Source: Escherichia phage Delraymugoa. Taken from it: a stretch of 64,000 nt of DNA. The stretch lies in the sequence record OR896825.1. The stretch is one strand, 5' to 3'. A program made the translations under genes and the position numbers. Under the pieces are notes generated by a model. That model saw only the letters and a list, made by a program, of their open reading frames with translations. It was not told the DNA's origin and did not search any database. Below, piece by piece: positions 2,777 through 63,772 of the stretch (position 1 is the stretch's first letter; each line of letters opens with the position of its first letter).

Positions 2777-5683
2777 ATGGCAGATTTAAGCAGAATCCAA
2801 TTTAAACGTACTAGCACTAAAGGCCGTCGACCTGATGCTGGTACGATGAATCCGGGGGAATTGGCAATCAACCTTGCGGATCAATATCTTCTTACTAAAA
2901 ATGATTCCGGTGCTATTATCAATTTAAGTTGTCCTCCGGTTTATGACAGCGATGTTACAATGGCGGGTAAGGTTAAAGGAAATAATTATATTTTAAGTAA
3001 AACCGCTAATTATTTTGAAGACCAAACCGCGCGAGATCTTAATTATTTTGGTGCGTTTCGACCGAATAATGCTGATGGTTGGTCTAACTTGATTCTGAAC
3101 ATTCCTCATCCCAGCGGTAAAGCACACGGTCGCGGGTTTGAATTTGAATATGGTTCTAGTTCCTCTCAGGTTAAAACCTATGGCTTTGATAAGGATGGTA
3201 ACAAGAGATTCAGCTTTCGCATGTATCACGAAGGTGATAAACCTACCCCATCGGAATTGAACGTTTATAGCAAACAAGAAGTTGACCGCATGTTTGTTAA
3301 AAACGTTAAAATGTCAACTCCTGCTGATGTAAGTAGAGGATATTTCAAAATTGCTACCGCTATGATCCCACAGCAAGGAAGAATGGCATTTATTCGTATC
3401 TATGGTGGTAATGGATATAACGTAAACTATATGGATCAAGTTGACTTTGTAGAAATCGTGATTCGTGGTGGGAATGGAAATCCTAAAGGTGTTAGTATTG
3501 CCGCATATCGACGAAATGCTTTAAATCAGCTTGAAGTATTTGCTATTAATACATCTGGTGATAACTATGATATCTATGTAAAATATGGTCGATACACCGA
3601 TAACGTTATTGTAGAATTTGGAAAAACGGTCGATGTTAATTTAACGGTTCATGATGTTCCGGCTTTTTCGGAAGCAAAACCTGCTGGTACTACCTTTGAA
3701 GGTCGTATTATTACCATGTTCAACACCGAAAACAAAGCAGGAACGTTGATGTTTGATAATAACTCACAAGCAACCTATGATATTGTGAGTCTTAGCAATG
3801 CACCTGATAATAGCCGAAATTATCTGCGTAAATTCCGTAGCAAAGCGAATGAAACAATATGGCATGAAACTGTTCAAGGTGATGTGTATCGTTTGGCTAC
3901 TGGTTCCACCGACCAAAAAGAAGTATTAAAAATTGTTGGTAGTGATGGTTTATTTGTCAATAGACTTCATCTGCAAGGCAATAACGCGATTCGTATGTGG
4001 CGTCCTACTGGTTGTAGTAACTATTTTGAATATATGGATCAGCGAGACGGGGCTAATAAACGTCAAGGGTGGTTTGGTTTTGGTTCTATAGAAACCAACG
4101 ATTTTCAATGGTATAGTGACGAAGGTAAAAACTTTGTTAAGCTAGAAGCAAGTGGTCAAGTATCTTTAAGCGCAGGTGCAACCAAAATTGTATACACTAA
4201 TGGTCAATATGTAGCTGCCAATTCTGATGCATACCGTATGATCTTTGGTAATTATGGTGCATTCTGGCGTAATGACGGCATTAAAGTTTATCTTCTGTCT
4301 ACTGCCGAAAATGATAGATTTGGTGGCTGGAACGGCAACCGACCATTCATTTACGATTTAACAACTGGTAAAGTTACTTTAGGTGGCGACGGTAACGAAG
4401 GCGCATTAGTTCTCGAAAGAGATAGCCGTGCTGCCCGTTTTGTGGGTGACATTTATGTCGGTAACGGAATGTTAACCTTTGATGCCGGACGATTAAATTC
4501 TCGCGATTACTTCCGGTTTAATCATTGGGGTGATAGCAATAACGCGCGTGATAACATCTTACAGCTTGACGATAGCATGGGTGCACACTTCACCACTGAA
4601 CGTACTTTAGCAACTGGTGCGATTAAAACTAAATTCTTCGGTGATTTGGAATCTGCTGGTCAAATTAAATGGGGTAAAGGGACCGCCGCATCTACGTTTA
4701 CTCTACGTGTATGGGGTAACGATAGTCGTAAACAAATATTTGAATGCGGCGATGAAAGCGGGTGGCATTGGTATACCCAACGCGCGGGCGGTCCGGATAC
4801 TTCTGCAATTGAGTTTGCCATCAACGGTACTGTTAAGCCTCAAGCAATTCACACTGGCGGTAATATCACGCTTAACGGTGCTGATATTGAATTTAAACGA
4901 AGCGGTAACAAGCATTTATGGTTTAGAGATCCGAACGGCTTAGAGTTGGGTCTGTTGTACTGCGATGATGCTGGTGTTATGCGTATTCGTGGGGAGAAAT
5001 CGACCGAAGTATGGAAATTCTCAGCAAAACAGATTCATCTGGAAACTGGTACTGCCGGAAATGGTGTAGGCTTGCTTCGTGGTGCTGTAGGTGGTGGCGC
5101 ATGGACTCAATGGCGAGATCGTGGCACTGGCTTGCAGGTTGATTGTCAGCAATCTGAAAACTCAGCGCATAACGTATGGAGAGCTACGCATCAAGGAAAA
5201 TACCACATCGCGGCAATGGGTGTACACGTTCCTGGTGGTACTATCGGAAATGCTATGGTGCGTATTCATGTACACGATGCAACTTTTGACTTTAGCGCAA
5301 CTGGTGATTTCCAAGCAGGTCGTAACGGTAATTTTAACGATGTGTACATTCGTTCTGATGCTCGCCTGAAAATCAATAAGGAAGAGTATAAAGAGAATGC
5401 CACCGATAAAGTTAATCGCTTGACGGTATACACCTATGACAAGGTTAAATCTTTAACCGACCGTACTGTCATTGCTCATGAAGTTGGTATTATTGCTCAG
5501 GATCTTGAGAAAGAATTGCCAGAAGCAGTAACAACCTCGAAGATCGGCGACGGTGATACACCAGAAGAGATCTTAACAATTTCTAACTCTGCTGTCAACG
5601 CTCTTTTAATTAAGGCGTTTCAGGAAATGAGCGAAGAATTGAAAGCCGTTAAAGCTGAACTAGCGGAACTTAAAAAGAATTAA
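2777..5683 (+). CDS. 37: long tail fiber distal subunit gp37-like with C-terminal intramolecular chaperone (peptidase S74-type) domain
   Basis: N-terminus RIQFKR..RP..GELAINL..DSG.II matches gp37; C-terminus has SDARLKINKEEYKENATDKVNRL autocleavage-type motif plus coiled-coil tail. Confidence 0.85.
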   Translation: MADLSRIQFKRTSTKGRRPDAGTMNPGELAINLADQYLLTKNDSGAIINLSCPPVYDSDVTMAGKVKGNNYILSKTANYFEDQTARDLNYFGAFRPNNADGWSNLILNIPHPSGKAHGRGFEFEYGSSSSQVKTYGFDKDGNKRFSFRMYHEGDKPTPSELNVYSKQEVDRMFVKNVKMSTPADVSRGYFKIATAMIPQQGRMAFIRIYGGNGYNVNYMDQVDFVEIVIRGGNGNPKGVSIAAYRRNALNQLEVFAINTSGDNYDIYVKYGRYTDNVIVEFGKTVDVNLTVHDVPAFSEAKPAGTTFEGRIITMFNTENKAGTLMFDNNSQATYDIVSLSNAPDNSRNYLRKFRSKANETIWHETVQGDVYRLATGSTDQKEVLKIVGSDGLFVNRLHLQGNNAIRMWRPTGCSNYFEYMDQRDGANKRQGWFGFGSIETNDFQWYSDEGKNFVKLEASGQVSLSAGATKIVYTNGQYVAANSDAYRMIFGNYGAFWRNDGIKVYLLSTAENDRFGGWNGNRPFIYDLTTGKVTLGGDGNEGALVLERDSRAARFVGDIYVGNGMLTFDAGRLNSRDYFRFNHWGDSNNARDNILQLDDSMGAHFTTERTLATGAIKTKFFGDLESAGQIKWGKGTAASTFTLRVWGNDSRKQIFECGDESGWHWYTQRAGGPDTSAIEFAINGTVKPQAIHTGGNITLNGADIEFKRSGNKHLWFRDPNGLELGLLYCDDAGVMRIRGEKSTEVWKFSAKQIHLETGTAGNGVGLLRGAVGGGAWTQWRDRGTGLQVDCQQSENSAHNVWRATHQGKYHIAAMGVHVPGGTIGNAMVRIHVHDATFDFSATGDFQAGRNGNFNDVYIRSDARLKINKEEYKENATDKVNRLTVYTYDKVKSLTDRTVIAHEVGIIAQDLEKELPEAVTTSKIGDGDTPEEILTISNSAVNALLIKAFQEMSEELKAVKAELAELKKN

Positions 5684-5725
5684 GGAAAAATCCCAGGGAA
5701 GGGAAACTACTAAGGAGAAACGGCT

Positions 5726-5965
5726 ATGGTCTATAATATCGTCATTGGTGCTTTGTCTAATTTCGGAATGAAATTATTGTCAAAGTTAATTAGTGAAAAG
5801 ATGCTCACTAAAATTTTCTTCTATTGCGCTCGTCGTCTTGCGGCTTATACCAATACGCCAATTGATGATCGTTTTGTGGAAGAACTTTATAAGGAGTTTA
5901 ATAAAGATCAGTCAGAAGATAGTAACGAGCAAGATAAACCTAGTGATAGTCAACTACCTAAATAA
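5726..5965 (+). CDS. hypothetical protein (79 aa) between gp37 and holin
   Basis: ATG with AAGGAG Shine-Dalgarno; hydrophobic N-terminus, acidic C-terminus. Confidence 0.4.
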   Translation: MVYNIVIGALSNFGMKLLSKLISEKMLTKIFFYCARRLAAYTNTPIDDRFVEELYKEFNKDQSEDSNEQDKPSDSQLPK

Positions 5966-5998
5966 GAGTACACTGTCATAGTTATCTTAGGGCATTAT

Positions 5999-6655
5999 AT
6001 GCAAGTTTCTGAAAAAGGGAAAGACTTTGCTATCTCAAATGTCCTGCGCGCTATTTTCACAACTAAAAGCACGGAGTTGCTCGTACTTCGTGTTTTTGCT
6101 GCCGTCGTGTTGTCCATATTAGCATTTGTCGTTTATAGTAAAAACGAGTTATTTGCGCTTTATAAAGAGACTCGTTATGAGACTTATGCTCACATTCTCC
6201 AGGTAGAGAAAGACCGCAATTTTGATAATGCAGCACAGGAGCAGTTACAGATAGTTCATGTGTCGGCTGATGCCGATTTTTCTGCTGTTTTTAGTTTTCG
6301 TCCGAAAAACCTAAACTATTTTGTTGATTTGGTGGCATATGAAGGAAAGCTACCTCACACAATCGATGAAAAAAATTTAGGCGGATTCCCTATCAATAAA
6401 ACGAGTGAAGAATATCGTAGGCATCTTTTAGGTAAATCATATTTTACCGATAAAGATTTCCAGTATATTCCATCAAGAGAAAAGAAATTAGAGAATATCG
6501 ATATAGGTTTCATGTATTCTTGTCCTATATTCAATCTCGATAATGTCTATTCTGGTAGTATCGCCATTTCATGGAAGAATAAACCGGATATTGACATTGA
6601 GAATTTAGATACTCTTTGCAATCAATCTGCCAGAATCCTCGGAAGGATTAGATAA
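5999..6655 (+). CDS. t: holin t (218 aa)
   Basis: Same length as T4 gpt; shares YETY, LQIVH.S.(D/E)ADFSAV(F/Y)SFRPKNLNYFVD and ARILGR motifs; N-terminal transmembrane segment. Confidence 0.9.
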   Translation: MQVSEKGKDFAISNVLRAIFTTKSTELLVLRVFAAVVLSILAFVVYSKNELFALYKETRYETYAHILQVEKDRNFDNAAQEQLQIVHVSADADFSAVFSFRPKNLNYFVDLVAYEGKLPHTIDEKNLGGFPINKTSEEYRRHLLGKSYFTDKDFQYIPSREKKLENIDIGFMYSCPIFNLDNVYSGSIAISWKNKPDIDIENLDTLCNQSARILGRIR

Positions 6656-6660
6656 CTTAA

Positions 6661-6692
6661 AGGGGAAGCCTTTCGGCCTCCCCTTCTTTTTA
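6661..6692. terminator. bidirectional rho-independent terminator at the late/early convergence point
   Basis: AGGGGAAGCC-TTTC-GGCCTCCCCT hairpin flanked by T-runs; lies between convergent genes t(+) and the 6690-6938 ORF(-). Confidence 0.6.
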
Positions 6693-6938
6693 TTGGCGCA
6701 TAGAAGCCCCTGAATCGCATTTTGACGCTGTATGATGAAAACAGGTAGCGTACCAGTCATCGGCTTGTTTGTCTTCGTCAGAAAACTCATAATTTCGTTG
6801 TATGCCGTTTTCTACTTTGACCAGTTCAATAGCTGTTTCTGGAAGATCAATCAGTCGGACAAAATCACCATCTTCCCACTCTACACGAGCAATATCATAT
6901 CCCATCTCAAAGTATACAATCGCTTGTTCTAATTTCAT
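6690..6938 (-). CDS. hypothetical protein (82 aa)
   Basis: ATG-initiated ORF in compact minus-strand array. Confidence 0.45.
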   Translation of the reverse strand: MKLEQAIVYFEMGYDIARVEWEDGDFVRLIDLPETAIELVKVENGIQRNYEFSDEDKQADDWYATCFHHTASKCDSGASMRQ

Positions 6939-8951: not shown

Positions 8952-9710
8952 TTACTTGCAAACGTATTGATCTACATCAATTGCGCCACCGAATGTAGGA
9001 TGACGTTTTTCAAATCTAATAGTTCCGTCGTTTGGTTCGAAAACGGAGTATTCATATAGATCTTTCTTGCCAACATTCTTATAAAACCCGCCTTTAGTCA
9101 TAACGGTTTCTTGTACGTTTGCTTTGTGTACGTTGTATTCGTCAATGTATACAAAATCAACCATCTTCCCATTTTTAATGGTTACTTTAAGATCTCCTGG
9201 TTGATTTCCATATTTGGCATACAGTGGCGCTTCTTTAATTTTTGTGGAAATTCCATCTTTCATACTCCACTCATAACGAACGGTGCATTGATAGGTAAAA
9301 GTTTCGACCTTCGGTTCTTCGACCACTTTTGCTTCCTGTTTCGGTTGTTCTTCTTCAACCTTCGCAGAAGTCTCTGAATCGCTTTCTGACGCGGTTTCTT
9401 CTTTAGGTAATACATTCATCAAGTTTTGGATTTGAGCGTTATATACAGCCTCCAGTGGCTGAATCTGCCCGATATTGATCATTGTATCACGAACAGTTTT
9501 ATTCCAGTTTCGTTGCTCTTGTTTCAGAGACGGATCAATCTTAACAGCCTTAACATACACCTCATGAAGTTTAGAGTCCAGTGCGGAGATAGACTCATTA
9601 GCACAAATAAACTTCTCTGATTTGGTAGTAGCTTTAGCGCAATCAAAGGACGCAGCGTTAGCACCGAAAGCAGTAGCAGAAAGAACGATAGCAGCGATAA
9701 TGTTTTTCAT
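8952..9710 (-). CDS. secreted protein with DUF1311/LprI-like (lysozyme-inhibitor-type) N-terminal domain (252 aa)
   Basis: Signal peptide MKNIIAAIVLSATAFGANA; then FDCAKA..E.FIC....L..LD..L..VY....QRNWNK..RD pattern; GAGGAA Shine-Dalgarno; own early promoter. Confidence 0.6.
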   Translation of the reverse strand: MKNIIAAIVLSATAFGANAASFDCAKATTKSEKFICANESISALDSKLHEVYVKAVKIDPSLKQEQRNWNKTVRDTMINIGQIQPLEAVYNAQIQNLMNVLPKEETASESDSETSAKVEEEQPKQEAKVVEEPKVETFTYQCTVRYEWSMKDGISTKIKEAPLYAKYGNQPGDLKVTIKNGKMVDFVYIDEYNVHKANVQETVMTKGGFYKNVGKKDLYEYSVFEPNDGTIRFEKRHPTFGGAIDVDQYVCK

Positions 9711-54871: not shown

Positions 54872-55153
54872 TTAACCATTAATCTTGTTTTTGACTACAA
54901 AGGATCGGAACTCATCAAAGCCACCGATATAATCACCATCATAGAAAATCTGCGGCATGGTGGCAATAACTTCTACCCCTGCGCGATCCTGAATATCGGC
55001 AATGATAGAATCAATCTTTACCGGACGACCGTTTTCGTCCACACCATCATTAACCGGAATGTAGATGTAAGGGATCTTACGCGCTTCACAAAGGCGCTTT
55101 GCATTCTGGCAATACTTACAGTTGTAACCTTCAAAACCAAAAATTTCTACCAT
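54872..55153 (-). CDS. nrdC: thioredoxin/glutaredoxin NrdC-like
   Basis: CKYC active site, MPQIFYDGDYIGGFDEF as T4 NrdC; start moved to ATG (MVEIFGF). Confidence 0.8.
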   Translation of the reverse strand: MVEIFGFEGYNCKYCQNAKRLCEARKIPYIYIPVNDGVDENGRPVKIDSIIADIQDRAGVEVIATMPQIFYDGDYIGGFDEFRSFVVKNKING

Positions 55154-55161
55154 GTTATACC

Positions 55162-55974
55162 TCAATCTACGTTAGTTACATAAACTTCTTGCGTATCAGA
55201 AGACTTACCACCTGAACGATCTAGGCAATAGGTCTTATTCAACAGGACGCAGTTTAAATCATTCCGCTTGATAAAGTCAAGGAGATGATCATTTACCTTT
55301 CCCTTATGATGTGTGACATTACTGATACCAAACTGAAAACCACGCGCCATAATAGATTCTACCCACTGATAGAATTTAATCTCTTCCTCGTCACTCCAGA
55401 ACTTATTGTATTCCGCAGAAGTGATAAGGTACGGCGGGTCCAAATAAACGAAATCACCTGGCAAGATCTCGATCTCGTCATAACGACCAGACGTAAAACT
55501 GATTCGACCGTCTTTGTTTTCTTCCTTAAAATTCAGGACACGCTCTATCGCGTTTTCGTTAAAAGTCCGGCGACCAAAATTAGCATTAAATTCTCCCTTC
55601 CGGTTATGGCGGTTAAGGTTGCTAAAACTGTGCTGAATCAACACAAACAGCGATAGAGGGTCTGGATTCTCGTTATACTTCTTACGGAATGTCATGTAAG
55701 CGTCTTTATCTTCGCGAGACAAACCATTTTCGGCAATAATACGCTTGATCGTAGAAACCGGATCAGGACACTCGTCAATCGCTTTGTACGCGTCTATTAA
55801 GCGGTGATCATAGTCATTAGCCAACACATCCCCTTCGACGTACATAGACACGCTCAAGCCGCCACAAAAGGCATCAACAAAGCGGTTATAGTGCTTAGGG
55901 AAATACTTACTAACACCCGGCAATAACTTTTCCTTATTGCCAGTATAGGGAATTAAACCTAATGCTTTCTTCAT
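55162..55974 (-). CDS. dam: DNA adenine methyltransferase Dam (N6-adenine, GATC-type)
   Basis: FCGG AdoMet motif, DPPY catalytic motif, FVYLDPPYLIT..YNKFWS..EE block shared with T4 Dam. Confidence 0.9.
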   Translation of the reverse strand: MKKALGLIPYTGNKEKLLPGVSKYFPKHYNRFVDAFCGGLSVSMYVEGDVLANDYDHRLIDAYKAIDECPDPVSTIKRIIAENGLSREDKDAYMTFRKKYNENPDPLSLFVLIQHSFSNLNRHNRKGEFNANFGRRTFNENAIERVLNFKEENKDGRISFTSGRYDEIEILPGDFVYLDPPYLITSAEYNKFWSDEEEIKFYQWVESIMARGFQFGISNVTHHKGKVNDHLLDFIKRNDLNCVLLNKTYCLDRSGGKSSDTQEVYVTNVD

Positions 55975-58543: not shown

Positions 58544-58850
58544 CAAGTTTTCTTCTATGTTCAAGTCGCGCAATCTTCTTTTCATGATTTCGTTGGTTCT
58601 TGTCTTCACAGTTTACCCACTCAACAAGATCTTTACCTAACTCGAAAGCCCATTCTCGGTCCTGCTTTACGTTTTGTAGGTATGGACTTTCTGACACTCT
58701 ACGAAGTGATGTTGTCGTAACAAGAATGATCTCAGGAATGGTCGGATGTTCTTTTCCATATACAATAGGACGCGAGTCACTATCAATACCTTGTAAGAAG
58801 GTGTATCCTGAATCACTTAGAATCATATACTTTTTCATTTCACACATCAC
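58509..58850 (-). CDS. hypothetical protein (113 aa)
   Basis: ORF in array. Confidence 0.4.
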   Translation of the reverse strand: MMCEMKKYMILSDSGYTFLQGIDSDSRPIVYGKEHPTIPEIILVTTTSLRRVSESPYLQNVKQDREWAFELGKDLVEWVNCEDKNQRNHEKKIARLEHRRKLDEIKNRILQSM

Positions 58851-59104
58851 AGTTTCCTCAACCAGTTATTCAAGCGAGTAAACCATGATGCTTTTCGTGC
58901 TTCTTTTACTTTATGTGCACGTAAACCACTGAAACACCATTCATAATCATCACTGAAACATGATTCAACAGGAACACCCGCATTTCGTAGTTCTCTGGTC
59001 TTTATCATGAATCCTTGACATAAGGGGCGACCTTCAACAATGATAGGAAGTTTAACTTTTTCCATGAAAGTATACCCAGCACGGTCAATAATTTCAATTT
59101 TCAT
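58847..59104 (-). CDS. hypothetical protein (85 aa)
   Basis: ORF in array. Confidence 0.4.
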   Translation of the reverse strand: MKIEIIDRAGYTFMEKVKLPIIVEGRPLCQGFMIKTRELRNAGVPVESCFSDDYEWCFSGLRAHKVKEARKASWFTRLNNWLRKL

Positions 59105-60289: not shown

Positions 60290-60318
60290 CTTTGATTCTC
60301 CTTAGTTGGTATGCGTGC

Positions 60319-60346
60319 ATTATAGCATTGTGATTATCTTTGTCAA
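60319..60346 (-). promoter_or_regulatory. sigma70-type early promoter
   Basis: TTGACA-N16-TATAAT immediately after terminator. Confidence 0.55.
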
Positions 60347-60350
60347 CACA

Positions 60351-60383
60351 CAAAAACAAAAAAGGCTACCCCGAAGGATAGCC
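60351..60383 (-). terminator. rho-independent terminator after gp38-like gene
   Basis: GGCUAUCC-UUCG-GGGUAGCC with UUCG tetraloop, followed by UUUUUUGUUUUUG. Confidence 0.65.
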
Positions 60384-60390
60384 CATAAAA

Positions 60391-61176
60391 TTACACGCGA
60401 GCACCGTAGATCGTGCCTACTTTATCCCAGCGAGGGGCATTACCAGTAACAGCTTTACCCGCAGCACCACCCGAGTGAACAGTTCCACCAGTACCACCTT
60501 TAATATATGAAGATTTGCCAGCAGCTCCCAAATCTCCACCATCTCCTCCATAATGAACCCCAGAAACAGTGCCTTTACCTGGGGCAGAAATTGTACCAGC
60601 AGATGCTGCCGCTGCGCCGCCTCCTGCCGCACCCGCAGCACCAAATGGACGGCCTCCACCGCCGCCAAATTTCATATCCATTTGAGGGAAAGGATTGTAT
60701 CTAGCACCAGCACCGCCACCACCGCCACCACCAATAATACCATTATTGTTTATTCTTAAACGAGTTCCAATTCCGTTATTTATTGCATTTCCTCCTGCTC
60801 CACCAGCAGAGTTACTTCCGCCATTTCCTCCACGACCTAATACATGAACACCAGAGTTAATAATGAGTGTTACATATTCGTTTGTCAGTGAGCTAGGGAA
60901 ATCAAGACAAGGAACGCCAGTAGATTGGGAAACAATATTACCCGTGATAGTAATTACTACCGGAGTAGATCCTTGTGCTTTCATCCAGTTAATAAGAGTG
61001 TCTTTATTGTAAGAGTTACTAGCACCAATGCTATAATGAATCTCTTTAGAGCGTCCGACCATTGCCGACATATACGCCGGACGACCTAAGCGAACAGCTT
61101 GCATTGCGGCGCTCATCCACCGTTGACCAGTCTCGGACACAGCAGATGATCCTACCCATCCAGAAGATATTGCCAT
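60391..61176 (-). CDS. 38: glycine-rich gp38-like receptor-recognition adhesin (T2/T6 type), 261 aa
   Basis: N-terminus GWVGSSAV.ETGQRWMS and polyglycine motifs (GRGGNGG, GGGGGGG, GGGGRPFG) separating short variable segments, as recalled for T2/T6 gp38; GAGGAAA Shine-Dalgarno. Confidence 0.6.
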   Translation of the reverse strand: MAISSGWVGSSAVSETGQRWMSAAMQAVRLGRPAYMSAMVGRSKEIHYSIGASNSYNKDTLINWMKAQGSTPVVITITGNIVSQSTGVPCLDFPSSLTNEYVTLIINSGVHVLGRGGNGGSNSAGGAGGNAINNGIGTRLRINNNGIIGGGGGGGAGARYNPFPQMDMKFGGGGGRPFGAAGAAGGGAAAASAGTISAPGKGTVSGVHYGGDGGDLGAAGKSSYIKGGTGGTVHSGGAAGKAVTGNAPRWDKVGTIYGARV

Positions 61177-61190
61177 AAAATTTCCTCACA

Positions 61191-61212
61191 AGAAAAGCCC
61201 CAATTAAGGGGC
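61191..61212 (-). promoter_or_regulatory. hairpin (weak terminator or attenuator) upstream of gp38-like gene
   Basis: GCCCC-UUAAUU-GGGGC followed by UUUUCUUG. Confidence 0.35.
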
Positions 61213-61230
61213 ATTGATTGATAATATTAC

Positions 61231-61452
61231 TTAGATGACCTCTGCTTCACCATTCAGGAAGAAAGACCATGTTTTGTTAGGATAGCGAAGCGCCCATGAT
61301 TCAGCGGTTTTAACACCAGCTTCGAACAATTGACGGCTGGTTACTTTAGCCATACCATCTTCGATGGCAACGTTTTCAATAATCATCGGGTACTTAGCGC
61401 CACGCATGAAACCGAAGCCAGCGGAAGATTTGATAATTTTAACCGTTGCCAT
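61231..61452 (-). CDS. hypothetical protein (73 aa) co-transcribed with gp38-like gene
   Basis: ATG with GGAGAATCAAAA leader downstream of promoter. Confidence 0.45.
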   Translation of the reverse strand: MATVKIIKSSAGFGFMRGAKYPMIIENVAIEDGMAKVTSRQLFEAGVKTAESWALRYPNKTWSFFLNGEAEVI

Positions 61453-61493
61453 TTTTGATTCTCCTAGAAAGTGTATCTCGTTTCGATGTGTGT

Positions 61494-61522
61494 ATTATGC
61501 AATAACACCGGATCGCTGTCAA
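61494..61522 (-). promoter_or_regulatory. sigma70-type early promoter
   Basis: TTGACA-N17-CATAAT with conserved leader. Confidence 0.55.
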
Positions 61523-61541
61523 CACTTTCTAAGAAAAATTT

Positions 61542-61826: not shown

Positions 61827-62173
61827 GCCAGACCTCGCAAAACACTAATAGCATAATCATGCTGGTTATTCATAATATCAATTGCATTGTGATAACGAGC
61901 TAAACCATCAAGGATAAATTCTTGTTTATCTTGTTTCAGTTTGGTATCACGCGCAGCCATAAGAGCATCAAGAACAGGTCCAAAGTGATTATCTAATTCA
62001 TCTTCGGTTGCAATGTTTCCTATTGCCTCGTCGATCCGTGATTCTAATGCTTGCTTTTCGTTGATCACTTGCTGGGTATATTCCAACACATCAAGAATAT
62101 CGCGGGTAACATCGCCATGATAAGGTATTCCCGCATGAAGATGATCAATTAGTCGTTGAATGTCAATGTTCAT
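61823..62173 (-). CDS. hypothetical protein (116 aa)
   Basis: ORF in array. Confidence 0.45.
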   Translation of the reverse strand: MNIDIQRLIDHLHAGIPYHGDVTRDILDVLEYTQQVINEKQALESRIDEAIGNIATEDELDNHFGPVLDALMAARDTKLKQDKQEFILDGLARYHNAIDIMNNQHDYAISVLRGLA

Positions 62174-62508: not shown

Positions 62509-62707
62509 TCTTCACGGTCTCCATAATTGTTTTGTAAGCCAGTTTAAGATGATCACCGAAAAACTTTGCGGTGTTACCCTTCGGATCGCGGAGCATGGTT
62601 TCTACGATCTCATCGGCAGTAACAATTTCTCCTTTCTTTGCTGCATGTTCTACCATATACTTCAAAGTTTCTTCGGAAGCAAGTGCTGCCGCTACTGGAT
62701 TAATCAT
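62498..62707 (-). CDS. hypothetical protein (69 aa)
   Basis: ATG with GGAGAATCAAAA leader downstream of promoter. Confidence 0.4.
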   Translation of the reverse strand: MINPVAAALASEETLKYMVEHAAKKGEIVTADEIVETMLRDPKGNTAKFFGDHLKLAYKTIMETVKNAK

Positions 62708-62737
62708 TTTTGATTCTCCTTTGTTGTCGATGTGTGC

Positions 62738-62766
62738 ATTATGCTATACCCTATTCCGGTTGTCAA
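62738..62766 (-). promoter_or_regulatory. sigma70-type early promoter
   Basis: TTGACA-N17-CATAAT. Confidence 0.55.
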
Positions 62767-62771
62767 CACCT

Positions 62772-62810
62772 AAAAACGAAAAAGCCACCCTTTCGGATGG
62801 CTTTTGATTA
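62772..62810. terminator. bidirectional rho-independent terminator
   Basis: GCCACCC-TTTC-GGATGGC hairpin with T-runs on both sides; same family as the 49727-49760 element. Confidence 0.55.
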
Positions 62811-63035: not shown

Positions 63036-63434
63036 TTAAGACAGTCGAGTGAGTTTATAAATTGTTTTAAAACATAGAGCTTTGATATCGTCTAAAACGC
63101 TCTGTAACGAGCTATCAACATCATTATAAATCTCACTAGCCATTTGCGTTAACTCTTGCAAATAGGCAATTTCGCTAATCTCCTTGCGGACGACCAACGT
63201 TGGCTGATAACGACCAGTGATCCCAATATTGGTTTCAGTGAAATCATCAACCAATTCTTGCATTTCAAGATAGAACTCTTCTAGAGCCTTATGTTTTGCA
63301 TAAGATCCAGGACCAGTTACCCCAAAATGCGCAGAATGCATATAAGTAACACTCATCAGACATTCACCGATAAAGCGGTCAACTTTATTAGCTTTCCCCT
63401 CTTCGGACGTCTTTCGAAAATCACTGAATTTCAT
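63036..63434 (-). CDS. hypothetical protein (132 aa)
   Basis: Start moved to ATG (MKFSDFRK) with GGAGAA Shine-Dalgarno; lies downstream of rI. Confidence 0.45.
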   Translation of the reverse strand: MKFSDFRKTSEEGKANKVDRFIGECLMSVTYMHSAHFGVTGPGSYAKHKALEEFYLEMQELVDDFTETNIGITGRYQPTLVVRKEISEIAYLQELTQMASEIYNDVDSSLQSVLDDIKALCFKTIYKLTRLS

Positions 63435-63723
63435 GTTCTCGATTCTCCATATTATGCAACATAACAAACTGTTGTGCGGCATATTCCCCCATAATAAAAC
63501 ACTGCTTAGAATCCATACATTTACTACGAGCATACATCTTCATAATATGGGCATGAAATTTCTGGCTGGTTTCAATGGAAGGAGATATTTTGTTTACATA
63601 TACTATCATTGCACCGTCGAAATAATCAGTAAAGTCACCAGTTGGATCATATTGATCAGCACTGACACTTCCGACCGCAGTCAAGCATATTGCCGCTGTT
63701 AGAGTTTTACGAATAAATGACAT
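63421..63723 (-). CDS. rI: lysis inhibition regulator rI-like secreted protein (100 aa)
   Basis: Signal peptide or anchor MSFIRKTLTAAICLTAVGSVSA; about 100 aa; adjacent to tk as in T4; late promoter upstream. Confidence 0.6.
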   Translation of the reverse strand: MSFIRKTLTAAICLTAVGSVSADQYDPTGDFTDYFDGAMIVYVNKISPSIETSQKFHAHIMKMYARSKCMDSKQCFIMGEYAAQQFVMLHNMENREHEIQ

Positions 63724-63732
63724 AAGTCATTC

Positions 63733-63772
63733 CCCCAGATTAAAAATATTCAGTTATATTTATAATCTGGGG
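63733..63772 (-). promoter_or_regulatory. 10-bp perfect inverted repeat that sequesters the rI Shine-Dalgarno in read-through transcripts
   Basis: CCCCAGATTA (63733-63742) pairs with TAATCTGGGG (63763-63772); the Shine-Dalgarno GGGGGA lies in the 3' arm. Confidence 0.55.
63757..63764 (-). promoter_or_regulatory. T4-type late promoter TATAAATA for rI
   Basis: Exact TATAAATA on minus strand about 35 nt upstream of rI ATG, inside the inverted repeat. Confidence 0.6.

Follow-up and report, generated by a model that had tools for sequence, protein, structure and literature searches.

A displaced gp38 adhesin gene in an early-type transcription unit of an RB49-like phage

Introduction

In bacteriophage T4, receptor recognition resides in the C-terminus of gp37 (PMC9569957, PMC3157838). 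In RB49, as in most T-even relatives, gp37 has a self-cleaving chaperone and a gp38 monomer then attaches (Efimov 2022, PMC9569957); in the same study the host-range mutants of RB49 were found to carry substitutions in gp38 only, E230K and Y231S. Intragenic recombination is a mechanism described for T-even adhesins (PMC3157838).

The g38 gene of RB49 has been described as 'displaced to a distant locus' (Trojet 2011, PMC3157838, citing Desplats 2002), and its product (RB49p079, NC_005066 45367-46143) is annotated as 'g38; similar to T2 and RB69 gp38 adhesin'. A 2026 preprint assigns OmpA as the RB49 receptor by genetic screens and reports five Krischvirus phages with gp38 "approximately 55 kb downstream of gp37". 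For RB49-like phages the displacement is thus already known, from the reference annotation and from papers ranging from 2002 to 2026. With respect to gene expression, Nolan et al. 2006 found neither MotA nor middle promoters in RB49, and listed AsiA only for other phages. Promoter-early stem-loop (PeSL) cassettes mediate the shuffling of modules and the formation of mini-circles in RB49 and phi1 (Arbiol 2010, PMC2839356); g38 is not mentioned among the PeSL-shuffled genes of that study. A literature search for Krischvirus transcriptomes and virion mass spectrometry found none, and the GEC-3S paper is silent on g38.

Here we describe the g38 locus of Escherichia phage Delraymugoa (OR896825.1) in a window of 64,000 nucleotides, and compare it with its relatives. 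An earlier note on this DNA, made from the letters alone, had taken gp38 to lie always directly after gp37 in known phages and had presented the gene as an orphan that was either relocated or put to another use. The first of these statements does not hold, RB49 having been a documented exception since 2002 (PMC3157838), joined by the five Krischvirus phages of the 2026 preprint. What the locus does offer is a receptor-recognition gene in an early-type transcription unit, with a receptor-binding module shared across genera.

The displaced locus is common to Krischvirus

The window shares 99.2-99.4% identity with Escherichia phages FL37, FL38 and kaaroe. About 90 further records match it as well, most of them from Krischvirus (RB49-like) phages, and on these matches it is assigned to that genus. 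The g38 gene (261 aa; 60391..61176, minus strand) and gp37 lie on opposite strands and 54.7 kb apart, as the earlier note had it at about 55 kb. Along the g38 strand, the genes for endo VII, nrdC (54872..55165) and dam (55162..55974) are downstream and rI.-1 and rI (63421..63723) upstream. The placement of g38 between nrdC/dam and rI/tk is borne out by Pfam matches for nrdC, dam and rI and by synteny for tk. In GEC-3S an HNH homing endonuclease gene lies between nrdC and dam (L001 19-774, minus strand); it is missing in the window and in kaaroe, where nrdC and dam abut.

Ten Krischvirus loci were compared (RB49, GEC-3S, kaaroe, MIZ6, Brandy, SSG23, 011D4, Makalu_003, ECD7 and JK32). The position of g38 and its flanking genes are the same in all ten. 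Almost no variation is seen in 400 nt before the gene and 130 nt after it, a stretch that reaches from the early promoter to that of the next unit, and in every locus the g38 frame is uninterrupted and preceded by a good Shine-Dalgarno sequence. The displacement of g38 by about 55 kb is an ancestral, genus-wide rearrangement. Of the options that the earlier note had left side by side, the relocated adhesin is the one that stands, given the same displaced gene in all ten loci and its published description in RB49.

The g38 product is a two-domain adhesin of the T2/T6/S16 type

Profile searches recover both gp38 domains in the 261-aa product: Gp38_N (PF21721, E 3.9e-18) over its full profile at aa 1-40, and GP38 (PF05268, E 1.1e-70) at aa 45-261, covering profile positions 1-218 of 218. 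Among solved structures, gp38 of Salmonella phage S16 (6F45_D) matches from residue 1 and from end to end (aa 1-259, E 8.6e-49), followed by 9V85 (GFP-gp38, E 3.6e-30), and the PHROGs family is phrog_2056, 'tail fiber protein; host specificity' (E 7.8e-100). These matches bear out the gp38-like character that had been read from the letters. They do the same for its two hallmarks, the conserved N-terminus, which covers the full Gp38_N profile, and the polyglycine motifs parting variable segments, whose glycine runs are invariant in the alignment described below. A single-sequence AlphaFold2 model of the protein reached a pLDDT of 34 and is unusable; full-length homology to 6F45_D, together with published AlphaFold models of RB49-like gp38, nevertheless predicts the polyglycine-II sandwich fold. 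The gp37-attachment domain corresponds to codons 1-40 (61057..61176, minus strand).

A search of the 64-kb window for a second gp38-like sequence found none, and 60391..61176 is the sole copy. Homology and published genetics together make it very probable that the frame is the displaced Krischvirus g38, whose product, a monomeric adhesin, forms the tip of each long tail fiber and sets the host range.

The gp37 partner and the canonical g38 slot

The distal long-tail-fiber subunit gp37 (968 aa, 2777..5683, plus strand) matches Pfam Gp34_trimer (E 2.8e-28) and Peptidase_S74 (E 1.4e-11). The latter, at aa 860-919 and starting at nt 5354, is the C-terminal intramolecular chaperone that the earlier note had reported. 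Such a chaperone speaks for a gp38 partner and not against one, as a self-cleaving chaperone is usual in gp38-type phages and its removal exposes the docking site (PMC9569957). In function the gene is no orphan: the window has no other adhesin copy, and its gp37 is without a T4-type receptor tip.

In place of gp38, the slot after gp37 holds a 79-aa ORF (5726..5965, plus strand; phrog_402, E 5.2e-20) and then the holin gene t (5999..6655, plus strand; Pfam Phage_holin_T, E 4.5e-61), the usual gene after g38. The slot is without gp38, as had been noted, with the qualification that 5684-5998 are the limits of the gap and not of an ORF. The 79-aa ORF is without a Pfam match, and phrog_402 is a large family; it corresponds to the 'small ORF of unknown function' in the g38 slot of RB49 (PMC3157838). 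Directly after t, an 82-aa ORF on the minus strand (6690-6938) matches the Pfam Tad2-like family (Thoeris anti-defense 2-like; E 3.8e-6, 27.8 bits, cut-off 25), in a slot that holds asiA in T4-type genomes. Elsewhere in the early region, an LprI (lysozyme inhibitor) domain is matched at the N-terminus of a 252-aa ORF (8952-9710, minus strand; E 1.4e-5, 25.8 bits, cut-off 22).

By analogy with the described phages, gp37 would trimerise with the help of its C-terminal chaperone, which would then cleave itself off; one gp38 would dock on the exposed gp37 tip via its conserved N-terminal domain, and the receptor, which for relatives of RB49 is OmpA or certain O antigens, would be met by the hypervariable loops of the glycine-rich C-terminal sandwich. 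The interface between the gp37 tip and the gp38 N-terminal domain is thus a predicted one; a comparison of the window gp37 tip with the gp37 fragment of S16 in the PDB gave no match, even at E 10.

Allelic variation and a cross-genus mosaic

An alignment of nine Krischvirus gp38 sequences and one from a Tequatrovirus (vB_EcoM-UFV13) separates a constant from a variable part. Within Krischvirus the N-terminal ~105-110 aa are essentially invariant, the exceptions being aa 4-5 and two substitutions in Makalu_003, and the UFV13 protein diverges from Krischvirus within aa 1-105. Variation within the genus is found nearly entirely between the glycine-rich motifs. Three allele types can be distinguished; the window belongs to the Brandy49/kaaroe/MIZ6 type, with amino acid identities of 100% to MIZ6 and kaaroe, 97% to Brandy49 and 81% to RB49. 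The positions of the RB49 substitutions E230K and Y231S fall in a loop that differs in the window allele, and because the receptor-loop allele differs, the receptor of this allele may be different from the OmpA or O-antigen of RB49.

At the nucleotide level the gene is a mosaic. Gene nt 32-271 are 98-100% identical to RB49/GEC-3S and 62-83% to UFV13, whereas nt 332-745 (60431..60844, minus strand), which encode the glycine-rich motifs and the hypervariable receptor loops, are 88-98% identical to UFV13 g38 and 40-77% to RB49/GEC-3S. Both flanks of the gene are again of the Krischvirus kind (83-100%, mostly ≥93%, identity to RB49/GEC-3S as compared with 28-44% to UFV13). Because nt 332-745 are UFV13-like and the remainder Krischvirus-like, the receptor-binding module has been exchanged between genera through recombination within g38. 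In UFV13 itself g38 sits in the canonical gp37-gp38-t slot, and the mosaic shows that relocation has not cut the Krischvirus gene off from the shared T-even adhesin pool.

The transcription unit

The unit begins with a sigma70-type early promoter (TTGACA-17-CATAAT, 61522..61494, minus strand; 11/12 matches) that corresponds to the predicted early promoter Pe:46502 of RB49; both hexamers are identical in the ten loci and the spacer differs at two positions. It leads into a 73-aa ORF (61231..61452, minus strand; phrog_7345, E 3.1e-34), in agreement with the earlier note. A paralog of this ORF, of 85 aa and likewise of phrog_7345, lies 2.1 kb downstream (58847..59104, minus strand), and the kaaroe annotation has three members of its VOG in the g38 region.

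Between the 73-aa ORF and g38 is an element missing from the earlier description, a hairpin (GCCCC-TTAATT-GGGGC, followed by TTTTCTT; 61212..61197, minus strand) found by a terminator scan. Its fold has an energy of -11.5 kcal/mol (z -2.3), its stem is invariant in all ten loci, and it is annotated as a terminator in GEC-3S; it would act as a terminator or an attenuator and could terminate most early transcripts. The Shine-Dalgarno sequence of g38, GAGG (61184..61187, minus strand), is located 7 nt before the ATG and is invariant in the ten loci. That it is GAGG and not GGAG recalls the idea of an escape from RegB; several neighbouring early ORFs are likewise without GGAG, which is present for 25 of the 98 minus-strand ORFs. 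Directly 3' of g38 is a strong intrinsic terminator (60384..60363, minus strand) with a 9-bp stem and a T run (-14.7 kcal/mol, z -4.5), annotated as such in GEC-3S and Makalu_003, and then the consensus early promoter of the next unit (TTGACA-16-TATAAT, 60346..60319, minus strand; 12/12 matches; Pe:45336 in RB49).

Exact copies of the late-promoter motif TATAAATA occur only twice in the 64 kb, at 1175 on the plus strand before gp36 and at 63757..63764 on the minus strand before rI, the latter corresponding to the predicted late promoter Pl:48756 of RB49. The g38 ATG lies 2588 nt downstream of this motif, the nearest on its strand, and the earlier statement that no late promoter is near the gene is upheld.

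Homologs of AsiA and MotA were sought in the window, which spans their T4-syntenic locus, and none was found; tblastn with the UFV13 proteins gave nothing below E 0.7. Because RB49-like phages are without AsiA and MotA, a shut-off of sigma70 promoters of the T4 kind is not expected in them. Transcripts from the promoter at 61522 would cross the 73-aa ORF and a weak hairpin (at 61212) on their way to g38, whose expression would then be attenuated and long-lasting. Such expression may suffice, because a virion needs only six gp38 monomers and the promoter should stay active. That g38 is transcribed from this promoter, attenuated and into the late period, is a possibility that we put at slightly under an even chance.

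Alternative readings of the locus

The location of g38 among small early ORFs behind an early-type promoter had led to the suggestion that a protein with the gp38 fold serves early in some other role, such as that of a decoy for receptor masking or superinfection exclusion, and not as a fiber tip; that the literature search found no virion mass spectrometry leaves some room for it. A gp37 with a chaperone-type C-terminus needs a separate adhesin, however, and the window holds a single gp38, whose gp37-docking domain is intact and essentially invariant within Krischvirus. The RB49 host-range mutations map to this gene (PMC9569957), and its receptor loops have been exchanged with a canonical Tequatrovirus adhesin. 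Reading the N-terminus of gp38 by eye reveals no signal peptide, hydrophobic or membrane segment, so that outer-membrane receptors would be out of reach from inside the cell. On the strength of the host-range mutants, the docking domain and the N-terminal reading, the decoy option is dropped as highly improbable. Still harder to credit is a non-functional relic copy left by the rearrangement, for which the unusual location is the one argument; an open frame and a good Shine-Dalgarno sequence are kept in ten out of ten loci, the variation is patterned and found in the loops, and the window has no other copy.

A more serious contender accepts the adhesin and differs in its timing. If the gene were expressed late, by gp55-dependent read-through from the rI late promoter at 63757 or from an unrecognised late promoter of non-consensus sequence, virion assembly would not depend on the early promoter. 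The protein is required only in late assembly, the g38 of T2/T6-type phages lies in the late tail-fiber operon, the upstream TATAAATA on the g38 strand is kept in six of the ten loci, and variants with one mismatch occur, such as TATGAATA at 61867 on the minus strand. Between the rI promoter and g38, however, lie a strong terminator (62805..62780) and the hairpin at 61212. Brandy, SSG23 and JK32 are without TATAAATA within 3.6 kb upstream and their g38 flanks are unchanged. One-mismatch matches to the motif are rarer than chance would have it (76 compared with 126 expected) and none is well placed, and in published HMM scans of RB49 the equivalent sites are predicted as early promoters, the rI promoter being the late one closest to g38. 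Late expression of this kind we consider less likely than not.

In Brandy, SSG23 and JK32 a 715-aa ORF is inserted between a 69-aa ORF and rI.-1 and shifts the late promoter beyond 3.6 kb (insert at L005 5612-7598, L006 5608-7592 and L010 5606-7593; full ORF at L012 346-2493, minus strand). Neither the window nor RB49, kaaroe, GEC-3S or ECD7 has this ORF. It was considered as a second adhesin and rejected, having no similarity to gp38, no Pfam match above the cut-off (Ig_3 is sub-threshold only) and no PADLOC match.

Possible mobility and regulation of the g38 cassette

The surroundings of g38 are rich in repeated promoter cassettes. Three of these (60290-60365, 61453-61538 and 62704-62784) share segments that are 70-91% identical (repeat families D2, D5, D7 and D8), and two pair a terminator with a promoter (60384..60363 with 60346..60319, and 62805..62780 with 62766..62738). 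If g38 is regarded as a cassette in a hyperplastic early region bounded by PeSL-type repeats, PeSL-mediated shuffling would be a plausible route for its original displacement.

Taken further, the Krischvirus adhesin would be uncoupled from the gp55 late regulon, made only from the sigma70 early unit via the invariant attenuator hairpin, and carried in a PeSL-bounded cassette that can be moved or exchanged. We offer this fuller proposal tentatively, with less confidence than the attenuated transcription from 61522 as such. If true, g38 would encode a virion component that is made early or constitutively, and would serve as a mobile module for host range. The regulatory question is when and how a structural protein that acts late is made from an early-type unit without MotA and AsiA, and models of temporal control in T4-like phages would be informed by the answer. 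For phage engineering, swaps of g38 alleles in Krischvirus therapeutics must target the displaced locus and not the tail-fiber operon.

Comparison with known systems

The name gp38 covers unrelated proteins. The gp38 of T4 is a tail-fiber assembly chaperone that has only the gene number and older labels in common with the window adhesin; the label of g38 in the GEC-3S annotation, 'distal long tail fiber assembly catalyst', follows this older T4-style naming. With gp38 of the T2/T6/S16 type the window protein shares the two-domain architecture, the glycine-rich motifs and a partner gp37 with a C-terminal chaperone. The difference lies in the genomic setting: in those phages the gene belongs to the late gp34-gp38 operon, whereas in the window an early-type unit on the opposite strand carries it, at a distance of 54.7 kb from gp37.

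The adhesin of UFV13, encoded in the canonical slot, has 91% amino acid identity to the window gp38 and a nearly identical loop region, and differs in its N-terminal 50 aa. The C-terminal 139 aa of the window gp37 are 37% identical to UFV13 gp37, and the N-terminal divergence of the two adhesins is consistent with, and may reflect, gp37 tips that are only distantly related.

The PeSL cassettes of RB49 and phi1 combine strong sigma70-like promoters with terminator stem-loops; the same holds for the window, where such elements are repeated every ~1.2 kb around g38. For the promoter at 61522 the match is only partial, as this promoter, unlike a PeSL, is without a strong hairpin directly upstream. 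The closest described system is RB49 itself, in which, as in the other Krischvirus orthologs, g38 occupies the same place between dam/nrdC and rI/tk, with the same promoter, 73-aa ORF, hairpin and terminator as in the window.
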